This document shows, one piece after another, positions 2,090 through 49,495 of a DNA stretch of 64,000 nt (positions are counted from its first letter, which is position 1; every line of letters starts with the position of its first letter). Both the position numbers and the translations under genes were made by a program. The DNA comes from a bacterium (lineage in GTDB: Bacteria > Patescibacteriota > Minisyncoccia > UBA6257 > MFKM01): positions 1,368 through 65,367 of the forward strand of contig JAUYAV010000011.1 in assembly GCA_030693325.1 (NCBI GenBank), in the 5' to 3' direction. Under the pieces are notes generated by a model. It was not told where the DNA came from, searched no databases, and saw only the letters and a list, made by a program, of their open reading frames with translations.

Positions 2090-2631
2090 CAAAGTTTATA
2101 ATTTACCCAATACTTTATACATATATGTATATTTTTCACTATAACGGGCGAGGTGAAAAACTTTATTAAGTTAAAGTTTGTTGTATACCCCGCCTGAAAA
2201 CGGCGGGAATTTTATTTTTATAGCCGGACAATTTGCCCCCAGACCAATTAAGCATTAATGTCTACCGTAAAAAATAAATGCTCAATCGGTGTGTGGGTAA
2301 AGAAGAAAAGATTGAATCGGAAAGAAATTTAAAAAATTAATATGACCCCCGTGCCAAGTCTTTTTTTTGGCGCGGAATTAAATTAGACAATTTTTTGAGG
2401 TAGAGAATTAATAAGGGTATATGGTGGATGCCTTGACACAAAGTGGCGATGAAGGACGTGGCGTAGCTGCGATAAGCCTCGGTGAGGTGCCTAGCAACCT
2501 TTGACCCGGGGATTTCCGAATAGGGAAACCTATTTGCATAAAATGCAAATGATTCCAAATATAAATTTTGGAATAGCAGACCCGCTGAAGTGAAACATCT
2601 CAGTAAGCGGAGGAACAAAAAAAAGATTTTT

Positions 2632-2662
<31 letters not shown>

Positions 2663-2932
2663 GAGCCTAAATTTGTTAAAATTTTCGCAAGAAGATTTTA
2701 ATGAACGTTGCAAGATGGAAATTTTTCTTAAGTTTTAAAGCTTGAAACTTAAGATAAGAGTTACAAATTTGTTGGCTAGTCGAAACCGTTGGAAAGCGGT
2801 GCCAAAGAGAGTGATAGCCTCGTAGACAAAAGTCGGCAAACTCTTAGTTTTTCATTCTTAAGTACTCCGAGGCCAGACAACCTCGGAGGAATCCAGGAGT
2901 ACTATCTCCTAAGGCTAAATACACTTTGTGAT

Positions 2933-2968
<36 letters not shown>

Positions 2969-4938
2969 ATAGGCCGTTGAGGCCGGTGAAATAGAATCTG
3001 AAACCATATACTTACAAGGACTCGGAGCCTTACAATTTCGCAAGAAATAACGGGTGACGAGGTGCCTATTGAAGAATGAGCCAACGACTTTATTTGCATT
3101 GCAAGTTTAACCTCGCGAAGCGAGGGAAGCGAAGGGAAACCAAGTGTTAATAGCGCTAATAGCAGTGCGAGTAAGACCCGAAGCCAAGCGAGCTTGTCCT
3201 GGTCAGGATGAAGGCCGAAGAAATTCGGCTGGAGGTCCGAACCGGTGAGCCGTTCAACACTCTCGGATGAACTGGGATAAGAAGTGAAAAGCTAATCGAG
3301 CTTGGTAATAGCTGGTTCTCTCCAAAATAGTTTTAGGACTAGCGTCGGATAAATAGATTTCTGGGGGTAGAGCACTGGATGATTTGTAAAGGACGAAAGT
3401 TCGACAAATCAATCAAACTCCGAATACCAGATTTTGTTCTCCGGCAGTCAGACTACGGGGGCTAAGCTCCGTGGTCGCGAGGGAAAAAGCCCTGACCGCC
3501 GTCTAAGGTCCCAAAATGTATGCTAAGTGTTAAAGAAAGTCTCCAACCAGAGACAAATAGGAGGTTGGCTTAGAGGTAGCCATCCTTTAAAGAGTGTGTA
3601 ACAACTCACTATCCGATGGTTGGGGGCGTCTAAAATTTATCGGGGCTAAGCATACTACCGAAGACGCGGATTCGTTTTTTGTTTACAAAAAACGAGTGAT
3701 AGGAGAGCATTTCCAGCCGCTGTGAAGGTTGACCCGCGAGGGCGACTGGAGCGCTGGGAAGAGAGAATGTTGGCATGAGTAATCACAAATCAGATGAGAA
3801 ATCTGATCCCCGAAAATCCAAGGTTTCCTCCGCAACGAAAATCGACGGAGGGTTAGGCGGCCCTAAGGCAATGGCGAAAGCCGCAGCTGAAGGACAGTCG
3901 GTTGATATTCCGACCTGCCCATTAATTATCGATGGAGTGACAAAGAAAATAAAATCGCGCGCCTTAATGGTTTGGCGTCATTAATAATAAGATTGGGCAT
4001 CCAGGAAAATCCGGGTGCAAGCCTTTAGTGGCACCCAATCGTTTATCGAAGTAAGGCTAAGTTTTTACTTGGCTAATGCGATTGAAGAGTCTTTCAAGAA
4101 AACCTTCTAAGAGTTATGTTAATGGGCTCCGTACCGTAAACCGCCACAGGTGGGTGAGGCGAGGAGCCTCAGGGGAACGGGTAATTCTTCGTTAAGGAAC
4201 TCGGCAAAAAAGCAGACGTAAGTTCGCAATATGTCTTGGCTGACGCAAGTCAGCCCGCAGCGAAAGAATCTCTGGCGACTGTTTACCAAAAACACAGCTC
4301 CCTGCTAACTCGTAAGAGGATGTATAGGGGGTGACGCCTGACCGATGCGAGAAGGTTAACGGCGGGAGTGCTCTGACGCAAGTTGGAGTGCCCACTGCCC
4401 GAAGCCCTCGTCAATGTCCGCAGTAACTATAACTGTGTTAAAGTAGCGCAATTCCTTTTCAGGTAAGTTCTGAAGCGCACGAATGGCGTAACGATCGGAG
4501 AACTGTCTCAACGAAGAGCCCGATGAAAATGCGATTCCCGTGAAGACGCGGGGTACTGGCAGTAAGACGAAAAGACCCCGGGAGCTTTACTGCAGCTTGA
4601 TATTGTTTTTAGAACTTTAATGCGTAGTGTAGTGGGTAGGCTTTGAAGTTTCGCTTTCGGGCGGAATGGAGCCGACAATGAAACACCCATCTTTCGAGTT
4701 TTAAAATCTAATCTGAACGGCAAAAACGTTCGGAGACACTGTCTGGCGGGCAGTTTTAATGGGGCGTTATCCTCCTAAAGAGTAACGGAGGAGTTTATTA
4801 AGGTCGGCTTAGCCCGGATGGAAATCGGGCTGGACGCGTAAAGGCAAAAGCCGGCTTAACTGCAAGACTGACAAGTCGCGCAGATGCGAAAGCAGAACTT
4901 AGTGACCCGACGATTCTTTATAGAAAGGTCGGAGACAC

Positions 4939-4969
<31 letters not shown>

Positions 4970-5105
4970 GGTGGAGCCCGAGAGTCCATATCGACGGCTC
5001 CGCTCGGCACCTCGATGTCGGCTCACCCTATCCTGGGACTGAAGAAGGCCCCAAGGGTTTGGCTGTTCGCCAATTAAAAGGGTACGCGAGCTGGGTTCAA
5101 ACCGT

Positions 5106-5424
5106 TGAGTTCATAAACATAATTACGGTAATTGCCGTAATTACAGTAATTACTGTAATTTTTATGAATTGAACGGTTTGAATCCGAGGATTATGACATC
5201 AATCACGGCGGTTATAGAAAGTAATTTCTATATTCCAATAGTTTAATTAATTTAGCTAACTAATATCGGTGGAACCCTAATTGATGATTAGGGCAATACC
5301 GAGGGAATTCTTTATAAATTAAAGAAGCCCGTAGAGACTAAGCGTTAGCCTCCGCCAAAATTTTGTAAAAAAATGGGCGGATGAAGATATAGTCCAATAC
5401 ACTTAGTAATAAGTGACCAATATG
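5106..5424 (+). ncRNA. Group I intron without ORF at E. coli 23S position ~2593
   Basis: Interrupts aaaccgt^cgtgagacag; ends in G; IGS tcacg-gcggtt (~5203-5213) pairs with both exons with the U.G pair; core motifs gtagagacta and gaagatatagtc. Confidence 0.9.
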
Positions 5425-21862: not shown

Positions 21863-22223
21863 TTATTACCCGGTGGCGGCGGTGAAAGTGCGGAGAGACT
21901 AAAGGAAGGGGAAATAACCATAGAAGACAAGAAATTCTATGAGGGATTTTTTGAGGAAATCGGGGAAGAACTAAGGAAATCAAAGGGAATGGGAGAGGGG
22001 AACAAAAAGCAGGATTAAATTATAGGCGGTAGGCTGTCCGCGCTAAAAGGCTTTGAGGGCAGATTCGTGGATGAGACGGCGATGAGTTTTGGGCTACCTA
22101 TAGATTCTAATTTCTCTTACTTGATATAGCCGCGAGCAAAGATTAAAATGGGCGGATAAAATCCCCAAAACTTTGCTTTAATATCGGAGGGATAATACTG
22201 TAAGAATTAATCTAGTATGAAGT

Positions 22224-40758: not shown

Positions 40759-41367
40759 TTATAAAAGTTTTTTAATTTCTTTTATCATTTCCGGGAAGCT
40801 GGCCTGATTAAAATGACCTCGGTTTTTGAATATTCTCATTTTTGCCTGCGGCAAAGCTTTTTTGTATTTTAAGGCATTGACAAAAAGAACAACAGGGTCG
40901 TCTTGGCTTTGATAAATAAAAATATTTTCCGCTGCCTGCGATAATTTGCTTAATTTTTTGGGCAAAATAAAATCCGCCAAAGATTCACCGGTATCCTCAG
41001 TATCATAAGGAGCCGCCACCAAAAAAACCGCGCGTATCTTTTTAGAAAATTTATTTTCTGATAAATATTTCGCCAAAAAAATTCCTCCGAGCGAATGGCC
41101 TACTAAAATAACTCCGGTTTTTATATAAGGGATAAACTTTTCAAACCAAATTTTCCATTCGGCGTATTTGGCGTTTGCTTTGTTCGGCATATCCAAAGAA
41201 ATAACTTCAAATTTTTTGCCGAGTTTTCCGCCAAGCGTCTTTTTCCAGTCGCTTTTTGCATTTTTATACCTTTCAAAATCAATTTTCTTTTTCTTTAAGA
41301 AAGAAAGATATTCTCTGTAAGTTTTATAAGTATTGCCTCCGTGAATTAAAACAATTTGTTGTTTCAT
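40759..41367 (-). CDS. Alpha/beta hydrolase (RBBP9/YdeN-like)
   Basis: IHGG, GHSLG, DDPVV, GHF. Confidence 0.88.
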   Translation of the reverse strand: MKQQIVLIHGGNTYKTYREYLSFLKKKKIDFERYKNAKSDWKKTLGGKLGKKFEVISLDMPNKANAKYAEWKIWFEKFIPYIKTGVILVGHSLGGIFLAKYLSENKFSKKIRAVFLVAAPYDTEDTGESLADFILPKKLSKLSQAAENIFIYQSQDDPVVLFVNALKYKKALPQAKMRIFKNRGHFNQASFPEMIKEIKKLL

Positions 41368-41571
41368 TTTTGATATTTTCCAGTTTCTTGCTATAAAACA
41401 AACTCGCCATTTTTTAAATTATCGAGGTTCGACCTCGATAATTTACAGGTCTGATAATCTAACCTTGTAAATATTATAAATCTTTTTCCGTTGTTAGAGT
41501 AGCTATGGCGGTTGCTTATTATTTTGACTTTACCCGCCAAGGCGTTATTATTATTTCATACAACTAAATAT

Positions 41572-41756
41572 GAGACCTAACCCGTAGGGGCAACCTACGG
41601 CAGGGTTATAAAAACCAGTAACGGATAAAAAGCTCCTAGTCAGAGCTCCGTTACTGGTCATATGGGGAAACCCGTATGGGGGTCGCAAGACCTCGCTGGC
41701 TGGGAGCTTTGTGTTTTCATAAAGCTAAAATGTCGAACCCAGCTAGCGTTAGTTTC
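41572..41756 (+). ncRNA. Putative structured RNA or 5' leader of unknown family
   Basis: Five adjacent hairpins with GCAA/GAAA loops, downstream of a TTGACT...TATTAT promoter-like site. Confidence 0.6.
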
Positions 41757-41768
41757 TTTAATAACTTT

Positions 41769-42935
41769 ATGAAAAATAAAATAATTTCTCTATTTCTAAT
41801 ATTTAGCTGTCTTTCGTTTTACTTAGTTTGGCCGGCTAATGCCTTAGCTGGTGTTTCTGATTTTACGGGCTGTCCAGCTTACAACGGCGGTTTGCAAGGA
41901 AGTGATGATTGTTATAAAGGATTGCGGGGCGATGGAGGTTCTTGTGAGTATGGAGTAGGAAGTATAAGGGGCACTGCAAATTTTTCCACGGCCGAACCAA
42001 AACTTCCCTTTCCGGAAGGAACAATTCTAAGGTGTAAAGGCATTTCTCGTACAGGTGGTTGGTCTCGTCATCGGATATACATGGATAGAATCTATCCCTA
42101 TACTAAAAGCAGAATTGCCGGTTTATCCGAAAATGGCTATGAGGTTATTTTAGAGAAAGGCGAAATGAAAAGAAAAAGTTTAGGATTTTATCCGGCAGCA
42201 GATGGAAGATATACGCATTGTACCCAATATACGGGCGGAGAATGCACGGGCGAAATAGTTTATTTAGATGAATATGAAAAAACTCTTTCTTCTGAAGATA
42301 TACCTTATCTGACAAAAGATTGTAATATTTGGGGTAGACTGGGAAAGTGTGTATATTGGGCTTCGGAAAAGAAAAATTTTGAGAATCTTATTACTAAAGA
42401 CGTAATGGAGGTGGTAGACAAAACCGAACGAACTTTTAGTTGGACCGATGAAGACGAAGATTGGTTTTCAACCACGGTCACTTCTCATGTTGACTATAAG
42501 GCCTATCTTTTAACCGCTTACGGTTCTATTTTTAGGTATCACAAATACCAAGAAGAAAGCAAAACTTCCTGGGGAGGATGGGGTTTTGCTATCATAGGAG
42601 CTGTTTTTGGAGCGTTTCTTACTCCTTTTCTTCCGGTTTTGGGAATTTTTGGCTCTTTTTTGGCTTCAGCAATGCCAGTGATAAGCGGCAGTATTTTTGC
42701 CAACCTGACAATGCTTGGGGGATATTTGACTTCGCAGGCCTTGGGGAAAACGACCAATCTTGACGGGGGAGAGCTTACTCTTGTTTATGTGCCGGATTAT
42801 TCTTATTCAACTTCAACAGACTCAACATTGACAATGCCGCCAATAGCGACCTCAACAATAGAGGGGTTTCAAACTCCGGCAGTACAACCGGCCCAGCCAA
42901 CGCCCGATTTCAAAATAAAAGAAATTAAACCGTAA
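41769..42935 (+). CDS. Secreted Cys-rich hypothetical protein with C-terminal hydrophobic Gly-rich segment
   Basis: Signal peptide MKNKIISLF...ANALA; start moved to 41769, after the structured leader. Confidence 0.75.
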   Translation: MKNKIISLFLIFSCLSFYLVWPANALAGVSDFTGCPAYNGGLQGSDDCYKGLRGDGGSCEYGVGSIRGTANFSTAEPKLPFPEGTILRCKGISRTGGWSRHRIYMDRIYPYTKSRIAGLSENGYEVILEKGEMKRKSLGFYPAADGRYTHCTQYTGGECTGEIVYLDEYEKTLSSEDIPYLTKDCNIWGRLGKCVYWASEKKNFENLITKDVMEVVDKTERTFSWTDEDEDWFSTTVTSHVDYKAYLLTAYGSIFRYHKYQEESKTSWGGWGFAIIGAVFGAFLTPFLPVLGIFGSFLASAMPVISGSIFANLTMLGGYLTSQALGKTTNLDGGELTLVYVPDYSYSTSTDSTLTMPPIATSTIEGFQTPAVQPAQPTPDFKIKEIKP

Positions 42936-42986: not shown

Positions 42987-43292
42987 ATGGAAGATAAATT
43001 TAAATTAGGTAAAAAATGGTTTTGGATAGGAGCGGTTTCGGCTGTTATTTTCCCCTTGATTGGCTTGATTTACGGCATCGCTCTCTTGACCGAAAAAAAT
43101 TTCATTCAAAAAAAAGTCAAAGAGGCCTATCTGATTATTTTTTTGGCCGTAGTTTTGGGCGTCGTTTACGCTTTAATCGGCTCATCTCTTGTTTCCAAGG
43201 GCTATCAATTTTCTCCTACCGGAGAATTACAAAGTATTCCCATGAAAACCACAGGCGGCCCGAAAACAGGAGATGTTTTGCAGCAAAAATAA
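42987..43292 (+). CDS. Small two-TM membrane protein
   Basis: Two hydrophobic helices. Confidence 0.7.
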   Translation: MEDKFKLGKKWFWIGAVSAVIFPLIGLIYGIALLTEKNFIQKKVKEAYLIIFLAVVLGVVYALIGSSLVSKGYQFSPTGELQSIPMKTTGGPKTGDVLQQK

Positions 43293-43331: not shown

Positions 43332-43476
43332 AGGACTTACGCCGTTGCCTTGAAGAATATCCCGCAGGCGCTGAAAGCTTGGTTTCGCCGCAGGCGAATT
43401 TCAGTGCCGAGGGAAAAGAAATCCCGACCGCTGGAGTCGGAATATTCTGGTTCTGAAAGGCAATGGCGGAAGTCCT
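43332..43476 (+). mobile_element. ~140-bp structured repeat element, divergent copy
   Basis: Different outer arms (aggacttacgccgttgcctt/aaggcaatggcggaagtcct), same core motifs. Confidence 0.8.
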
Positions 43477-43577
43477 GTTATCCGAACAAATTTTTTGAGC
43501 TAATGAATTGCGCCGAATATTTATAGAAAATTAACCGGTTCGTCTTAATCAAGATTTCATGTTAAAATATTCATAAC

Positions 43578-48796: not shown

Positions 48797-49495
48797 TTAA
48801 TATACTCTAAATTTAATCAATTTTCTAAATTTTTCAACCTCTAATTTTTTACGAAGTCTAGTTGAAGTTTTTCTAATCTCGGGATTATAACCAAGTAATT
48901 TTAACCCATTCTCAACATTTTTTAATAAACTTTGGTTTTTATTGGAAAATTGAAAGTTATAAGTACATGTCGGTTTATGAACCGATAAAGAACCCTCCGC
49001 TTCAAATAACCCTCTTAAATATCTGATTAAATAACTTTGGTTTTTTAAAATCCAATTAGGAGTTTTTATGTTTAAACGACCTCTATCGCCTGAAGGGATA
49101 CCTAATCTTTTTGAAATTTCTTTTTGATAAAGACCGATTCTTATATTGTTTTTATTGTAAACCTTGCTAACTGTTGGTTTCTTATTAAATATTTGTTTAG
49201 TTAATTTAGTATAACGATTAACAAAACCTAAATTATTAGAGTTTGCTGAAATTATAATTCTTTCTGTTCGTGGAAATTTACTAATATTGCCGTCGCCAAG
49301 AACAACTCCAATATATTCCGCTAAATTACCAGACAAGGAAAGGGGAGGATAATTTTGAGGAATTTTTCCAATTCTTCGCATTCTTTCCCGCCATTCCTTA
49401 AAATTATCAATTTTTTTCCGCTTCATTGTCCTAGCTGTCCTCAATACAGAGGGATGTGTATCTTTAGTGAATCCTTTATTCCAACTTGACTTCAT
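48797..49495 (-). CDS. Free-standing two-motif LAGLIDADG endonuclease-like protein
   Basis: LAEYIGVVLGDG and YLRGLFEAEGS motifs; N-terminal WNKG NUMOD-like motif; AT-richer than neighbours. Confidence 0.85.
   Translation of the reverse strand: MKSSWNKGFTKDTHPSVLRTARTMKRKKIDNFKEWRERMRRIGKIPQNYPPLSLSGNLAEYIGVVLGDGNISKFPRTERIIISANSNNLGFVNRYTKLTKQIFNKKPTVSKVYNKNNIRIGLYQKEISKRLGIPSGDRGRLNIKTPNWILKNQSYLIRYLRGLFEAEGSLSVHKPTCTYNFQFSNKNQSLLKNVENGLKLLGYNPEIRKTSTRLRKKLEVEKFRKLIKFRVY

Follow-up and report, generated by a model that had tools for sequence, protein, structure and literature searches.

Introduction

Attenuators and intrinsic terminators place a U-rich run directly after a GC-rich helix and involve competing pairings. 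The c-di-GMP-I riboswitch contains a tetraloop-receptor contact and precedes varied genes, many of which encode surface proteins. The RNA family LOOT ranges over candidate phyla such as OD1/Parcubacteria and TM7, and its original description is reportedly in the supplement of Weinberg et al. 2017. In Rfam, LOOT (RF03000) has the type 'Gene; sRNA'. According to the available portions of the respective papers, it is a ZWD-derived 'metagenomic-based RNA' (PMC7779021), its structure was improved by two pairs in Rfam 15 (PMC11701678), and it has about 43 pairs, six helices and 28 cross-covariations (bioRxiv 2020.02.04.933952). The name LOOT is absent from the searchable portions of the main text of PMC5737381 and of PMC13085918. 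Our literature search, which covered listings and main texts, found no functional study of LOOT. In the searchable literature, LOOT is an orphan RNA from tiny-genome bacteria whose function is not known.

Results

We found that the window, the whole 64,000-nt stretch of DNA analysed here, carries on its plus strand a real structured RNA that is a further copy of the catalogued orphan family LOOT. The original prediction had proposed an undescribed RNA, to be checked by an Rfam search. That search (cmscan) gave a full-length match to RF03000 (model positions 1-121 of 121) with 92 bits, twice the gathering cut-off of 46.4, and an E-value of 2.9e-16, which rules out an undescribed RNA. LOOT is the sole family above its own cut-off within 41300-41900. 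The other three Rfam matches in this region have 16-18 bits and E-values of 5-8, and none of the four matches at E <= 10 is RNase P, tmRNA, SRP, 6S or a known riboswitch family; the prediction was right in setting the RNA apart from RNase P, tmRNA, SRP and the known riboswitches. The four-stem architecture P1-P4 of RF03000, with a GAAA-capped P3, is present in the window copy, which is the single LOOT copy of its source genome (G000; 661 kb, 95.7% completeness).

We compared 66 LOOT copies, a subset of the matches that consists of 38 copies minus L037 (near-identical to L027) plus 29 further ones. Their pairwise identity has a mean of 0.53 and a maximum of 0.85; because the copies are related, the homologue counts given below overstate independence. 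A held-out set comprised 18 new loci, with earlier repeats and four weak matches excluded; 17 were parsed and L100 was not. With the RF03000 model, LOOT turned up in 8 of the 61 relatives, in 28 of the 151 class-level genomes and in 33 of the 151 phylum-level ones (G000 counted in each), but in none of the four same-genus genomes and in none of the 14 control genomes. R1, a LOOT model with a longer 3' end, matched 30 of 151 order-level genomes, four of them weakly, and the same genus was still at 0 of 4. Since the genomes are 84-100% complete, a LOOT RNA that was not found is not necessarily absent. There are up to 4-5 copies per genome. Tandem or clustered copies are seen at L014:232-350 and L014:1501-1624, each ahead of its own gene, at G389:C37:4223-4558 and in G351 (five copies). 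Searches with three sequence patterns also located LOOT on eight viral contigs of 5-19 kb (91-116 bits with R1), and a blastn search of cultured phages gave no match.

Table 1. Features of the LOOT locus and of the genes behind it (window coordinates).
Feature	Position	Strand	Evidence
Putative sigma-70-like promoter site (-35, 16 nt, -10)	41524..41551	+	10 of 12 consensus positions
LOOT core (P1-P4 as modelled by RF03000)	41574..41694	+	cmscan match
P1 with 11-nt GAAA-tetraloop-receptor-like internal loop (41576-41581 with 41601-41605)	41574..41607	+	sequence; conservation
P1 inner stem	41582-41600	+	
P2 (a, 41614-41624; loop segment b, 41629-41643; a', 41648-41658)	41614..41658	+	covariation
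P2 inner stem	41631-41647	+	
P3, 8-bp stem with GAAA loop (41667-41670)	41659..41678	+	covarying stem
P4, stem with GCAA loop	41679..41694	+	RF03000 match; covariation
Fifth hairpin, b' with downstream b'' (41718-41747); copy-specific competitor of b:b'	41695..41747	+	fold; duplex energy
Segment b', outside the Rfam model; long-range/pseudoknot helix with b	41696..41710	+	covariation
U-rich run adjoining the GC-rich b' portion on its 3' side; candidate tract for termination or pausing	41708..41717	+	sequence
388-aa protein, hydrophobic signal-peptide-like N terminus	41769..42935	+	no Pfam family
101-aa hydrophobic ORF	42987..43292	+	ORF; no Pfam family

The stretch 41560-41775 folds with -94.8 kcal/mol on the plus strand (z = -10.5, none of 200 shuffles as good) and with -76.3 kcal/mol on the minus strand (z = -5.8). 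The unforced fold of the LOOT locus has -95.3 kcal/mol. Covariation, found across the 66 copies in the homologue collection that the prediction had called for, and genomic context support the predicted plus-strand structured RNA. The five back-to-back hairpins of the prediction are all present in the sequence. They do not form one fixed structure, however, because b', the 5' strand of the fifth, covaries family-wide with the P2 loop. A helix between 41572-41581 and 41748-41756, which the prediction had put forward as a possible closure of the domain, did not hold up: it has five pairs (-4.6 kcal/mol) and uses bases that P1 needs. It was also rejected as a conserved element, with -3.8 kcal/mol for the own 3' partner and -4.0 kcal/mol for those of other copies (n = 65).

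The predicted TTGACT...TATTAT site is present (41524-41529 and 41546-41551) and is the best of 10 promoter-like sites in a consensus scan of 3 kb. Shuffled sequence gives 6.5 +/- 2.9 such sites, so that the site is weak by itself. Among the LOOT copies, 48 of 65 have a -10-like box (at least 5/6) at a distance of 8-40 nt upstream, as compared with 26 of 194 control windows further upstream. Transcription is predicted to start near 41558; a look-up of RNA runs for the stretch listed none, which counts neither for nor against expression. A short A/C-rich motif just 3' of the -10 box (41561-41569) recurs in 20 of 65 LOOT leaders; it may be a general transcription-start signature, because G000 has 91 such sites. 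A perfect palindrome (41416-41444; 12-bp arms, 5-bp spacer) lies 158 nt upstream of LOOT and has nine related sites in G000, itself and one at 22222 of the window counted. This palindrome is possibly a protein-binding or recombination site. A tie to LOOT was rejected, as it was seen at only two of 67 loci, the window's own and one weak match.

The 11-nt receptor of GAAA tetraloops and its variants are described in the available parts of PMC3494683 and bioRxiv 2024.03.11.584472, and the latter includes the variant CCUAAC_CAUGG among the receptors assayed. Compared with the published variants, LOOT carries the sequence signature of a GAAA loop and an 11-nt receptor. The P3 loop is GAAA in all 66 copies, and the P1 internal loop matches receptor variants, reading CCUAA(A/C/G) with (C/U)A(U/C)GG in most copies (mainly CCUAA(A/C) with (C/U)AUGG). 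The window copy differs in having a G at the bulged position; the homologue L007 has CCUAAG with UAUGG. The receptor-like block of P1 is the most conserved block of the family. Nearly every base conserved in at least 90% of the copies belongs to the receptor-like loop, the GAAA loop, a helix end or the U-run. P1 may dock the GAAA loop of P3. In P2, all 10 outer pairs have two-sided changes, with 94.8% of cells paired in an alignment that was fitted to P2. The length of P2 is tightly held, at 38-50 nt in the 66 copies.

The RF03000 model stops at P4. In the 66 homologues, the roughly 15 nt that follow P4 pair with the P2 loop (b:b'), and the window LOOT runs about 23 nt beyond the 3' end of the model. 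The b:b' duplex has -27.1 kcal/mol in the window. Over the 66 copies, the mean is -25.7 kcal/mol with the own tail and -14.5 kcal/mol with the tails of other copies. The own tail is among the top three of 66 for 57 copies, and in 60 copies none of 100 shuffles reached the own value; one copy (L025) fails the test. The held-out copies gave -27.4 kcal/mol with own and -19.0 kcal/mol with swapped tails (n = 17). The duplexes have up to 12-25 pairs. Column pairs between loop and tail are among the top covarying pairs in an alignment fitted only to P1-P4, on which the b:b' pairing was not imposed. A 14-pair b:b' helix has 87.5% of its cells paired, versus 75.8% in shuffles (0 of 500 as high) and 38-56% in slid-register controls, and 116 two-sided changes, versus 39.8 in shuffles. 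Two-sided change is seen at 10 of the 14 pairs, a count that 17 of 500 shuffles reached.

In 65 of 66 copies, 0-1 nt separate the end of b:b' from the U-run. This GC-rich helix adjoining a U-rich tract, the A-rich stretch before its 5' strand and the competing pairings are like those of attenuators and intrinsic terminators. However, b:b' is a long-range helix that encloses about 55 nt including two hairpins, unlike the local hairpin with a 3-8 nt loop of a standard terminator, and its 5' strand lies in the loop of another stem. LOOT also differs from attenuators in having no leader peptide or known sensor. The U-run has at least five U of eight in 65 of 66 copies, a count inflated by anchoring at the first UU, and is interrupted (six of eight U in 43 of 66). 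A terminator scanner run at the locus did not call b:b' and the U-run as an intrinsic terminator.

Two elements downstream could compete with these pairings. One is the predicted fifth hairpin, which is real in the window, where b':b'' has -28.8 kcal/mol. It is significant in only 19 of 66 copies, with the window copy the strongest, and was rejected as a family-wide feature (own -12.0 versus non-own -9.5 kcal/mol). The other is a second copy of the P2 5' strand (a), which 20 of 83 LOOT RNAs have further downstream, usually at the start codon. Second copies matching a at 9 or more of 11 positions are found in 15 of 66 own sequences versus 50 of 4290 non-own ones, and in 5 of 17 held-out copies versus 3 of 272 swapped ones. 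In 11 of the 15, the second copy ends -2 to +5 nt from the called ATG; of the other four, two have an ATG at that place by eye, one is 23 nt off and one has no ORF. A start-codon copy precedes five of six DNA methyltransferase genes (L002, L007, L014, L018 and L053) versus 10 of the 60 others, and these five cases are not independent since the elements may be related. The window has no start-codon copy, its best match to a being 6 of 11. The two competitors occur together in only two copies, and 35 of the 66 lack both (no start-codon copy, no significant fifth hairpin); this tally took in 14 of the 15 start-codon copies.

We compared the P2-closed and b:b' states as nested folds, a scoring that leaves outside it a pseudoknot holding both. 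In the window, the two alternatives have -64.6 versus -64.1 kcal/mol for folds to 41710, -68.1 versus -66.2 kcal/mol for folds to 41716, and -91.3 versus -71.1 kcal/mol after the fifth hairpin is made. At the U-run they are within 2 kcal/mol of each other in the window and within 3 kcal/mol in 32 of 66 copies. A lead of over 3 kcal/mol goes to the P2-closed fold in 28 of 66 copies and to b:b' in only six. Of 14 copies, only three have a start-codon copy that takes over 25% of a' at equilibrium.

The gene behind LOOT was predicted to encode an orphan secreted protein. The protein has a signal-peptide-like N terminus and no Pfam family. Its single full-length homologue, P0002, is 69% identical over 88% and has a different, longer C-terminal part. 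A metagenome contig (L111) has a partial homologue and ends before the 5' end of that gene. A genome scan for the protein gave two short weak matches (22-23 residues), and the Atlas similarities to hypothetical clusters are 0.79 and 0.75, under the 0.9 guide. The protein has a cysteine-rich N-terminal half, a glycine-rich hydrophobic stretch at residues ~270-320 and a Thr/Pro-rich tail. The prediction had also raised the possibility that translation from an ATG at 41676 is conserved. This ATG sits inside P3, in its 3' strand, and the BLASTP alignment of P0002 starts at residue 26 of the resulting 419-aa ORF and runs without a break only once the signal peptide is reached. The extension is thus not conserved in the sole full-length homologue, a result that has the thin basis of one protein. 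The start at 41769 is favoured because P0002 aligns from the signal peptide on. The 101-aa ORF is probably co-transcribed with the 388-aa ORF, given the gap of 51 nt.

LOOT and these two ORFs make up a variable slot in G000. In G003, about 100 nt lie between the flanking hydrolase and helicase genes, and G004 and G001 have other genes ahead of the helicase gene. A copy of a ~145-bp interspersed repeat (window 43332-43478) closes the slot before the helicase gene; it has 12 blastn matches in G000, itself counted, and many in the four same-genus genomes. Elsewhere in the window, a group I intron match (5190-5416, 77.9 bits) overlaps the end of a 23S rRNA match (2401-5260), and a LAGLIDADG-like ORF (48797-49495) adjoins a tRNA gene.

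Across the family, a same-strand ORF starts within 150 nt of LOOT in 56 of 66 copies, at a median of 58 nt after P4. We picked 65 downstream ORFs automatically, some perhaps in wrong frames. Of these, 41 have no Pfam family, and the others include six DNA methyltransferases, four SNase nucleases, four DUF4352 proteins, four zinc-ribbon proteins (one also DUF4352) and one Ltp lipoprotein. A hydrophobic N terminus is found in 45 of 61 downstream ORFs versus 127 of 446 ORFs in G000. The nearest upstream ORF has a resolvase (recombinase) domain at 7 of 63 loci; other upstream ORFs encode a terminase, two ParB-methylases, a reverse transcriptase and AbiV. In G000, a Shine-Dalgarno-like 4-mer is found for only 24 of the 304 long ORFs, which makes masking of the start region a plausible mode of control. 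An anti-Shine-Dalgarno motif was detected in 48% of Parcubacteria, according to the available part of PMC9297842.

Discussion

The comparison of sequences establishes P1-P4, the b:b' helix, the abutting U-run and a location with a -10 box ahead and a same-strand gene behind, from which we infer termination, switching, docking and a trigger. Segment b', the U-run and the fifth hairpin are missing from the Rfam model, although the original description may already mention the flanks. We suggest, with a probability of about 0.45, that LOOT in the window is a cis-acting 5' leader switch on the accessory gene downstream. We favour an on/off leader role because the relatives share the extra base-pairing that the model lacks. 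The probable cis-regulatory role in the original prediction gains support from covariation and context. The separation of own from swapped tails, also in the held-out copies, the near-equal energies of the two folds at the U-run, the start-codon copies that track their own P2, and the -10 box and same-strand ORF on either side of LOOT all argue for the switch. An accessory gene as its target is consistent with the absence of LOOT matches in the same-genus genomes, the nearly empty slot in G003 and the resolvases upstream.

In such a switch, P1 would dock the GAAA loop of P3 and hold the fold so that b captures b' on its emergence from RNA polymerase. Together with the U-run, the helix so formed would work in the manner of an intrinsic terminator or a strong pause (OFF). 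If the polymerase gets beyond the U-run, the fifth hairpin of the window copy would lock away b', P2 would stay closed and the start at 41769 would be open (ON). In about a quarter of the other copies, a' may instead be freed to pair with the start-codon copy of a, which would block translation. As the trigger, folding kinetics or a mobile-element protein is more likely than a metabolite, given that hardly any unpaired bases of the junction are conserved. Several observations speak against a switch. The U-run is interrupted, the helix is unlike a standard terminator and the scanner was silent. The P2-closed fold leads far more often than b:b', and the start-codon copy rarely wins at equilibrium. 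About half of the copies have neither competitor, and the window has no start-codon copy.

P2 and b:b' might also coexist in a pseudoknot, with no switch. LOOT would then be a static compact 5' leader. P2, b:b' and the tetraloop-receptor contact, all formed at once, would shield the 5' end of the mRNA or aid the loading of ribosomes in an organism that makes hardly any use of Shine-Dalgarno sequences, and both competitor elements (fifth hairpin, start-codon copy) would be secondary, lineage-specific tuning. We consider this unlikely, although much of the above is consistent with it: both helices are conserved in nearly all copies, the length of P2 is tightly held, the invariant GAAA and the receptor-like loop point to a stable tertiary fold, many copies lack a competitor, and Shine-Dalgarno use is low in G000 and, judging from the anti-Shine-Dalgarno count, limited in Parcubacteria. 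However, the longer b:b' duplexes would leave few linker bases with P2 shut. Moreover, the U-run is conserved and the start-codon copy co-varies in 20 of 83 copies, which implies that P2 opens at least in some copies.

The Rfam type raises an improbable alternative, a free-standing trans-acting sRNA that has a promoter of its own, is about 160 nt long and ends at b:b' and the U-run, with the downstream gene as a leak-through passenger. Most copies do have promoter-like and terminator-like ends, several copies can occur in one genome and the downstream genes are unrelated to one another. The genomic context points to a leader rather than an sRNA, however: with gene starts so soon after P4, a second promoter would have little room, the match of the start-codon copy to its own P2 is a cis feature, and the conservation in the LOOT alignment reveals no trans-pairing seed. 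A small-molecule riboswitch, with P1-P4 as aptamer, b:b' and the U-run as expression platform and a second-messenger-like ligand to explain the varied downstream genes, is very improbable: the leader position, alternative pairings and terminator-like geometry fit it at the sequence level, and the tetraloop-receptor contact and the varied downstream genes with hydrophobic N termini recall c-di-GMP-I riboswitches, but LOOT has another order of elements and no riboswitch match even at E <= 10, its downstream genes share no common pathway or function, and its conserved bases offer no unpaired ligand pocket.

The leader switch on the downstream gene is our preferred reading. A doubtful but possible extension of it to the whole family is that LOOT is a ligand-free strand-exchange attenuator for mobile-element cargo genes in tiny-genome bacteria. 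In this proposal, a tetraloop-receptor scaffold would let a loop capture the emerging RNA into a long-range terminator, the freed strand could mask the start codon, and the pairing strands would be re-tuned for each cargo gene.

The window locus is one more copy of a catalogued RNA, and the value of the analysis lies at the family level. Through the b:b' pairing, the U-run, the loop resembling a receptor and the second copy of a at the start codon, an orphan listed as 'sRNA' gains a leader mechanism that can be tested. Should it hold, this mechanism would provide a natural case of termination by a long-range helix. It would also mean that incoming accessory genes, such as those for DNA methyltransferases, nucleases and surface proteins, are controlled by LOOT in regulator-poor bacteria with little Shine-Dalgarno use.
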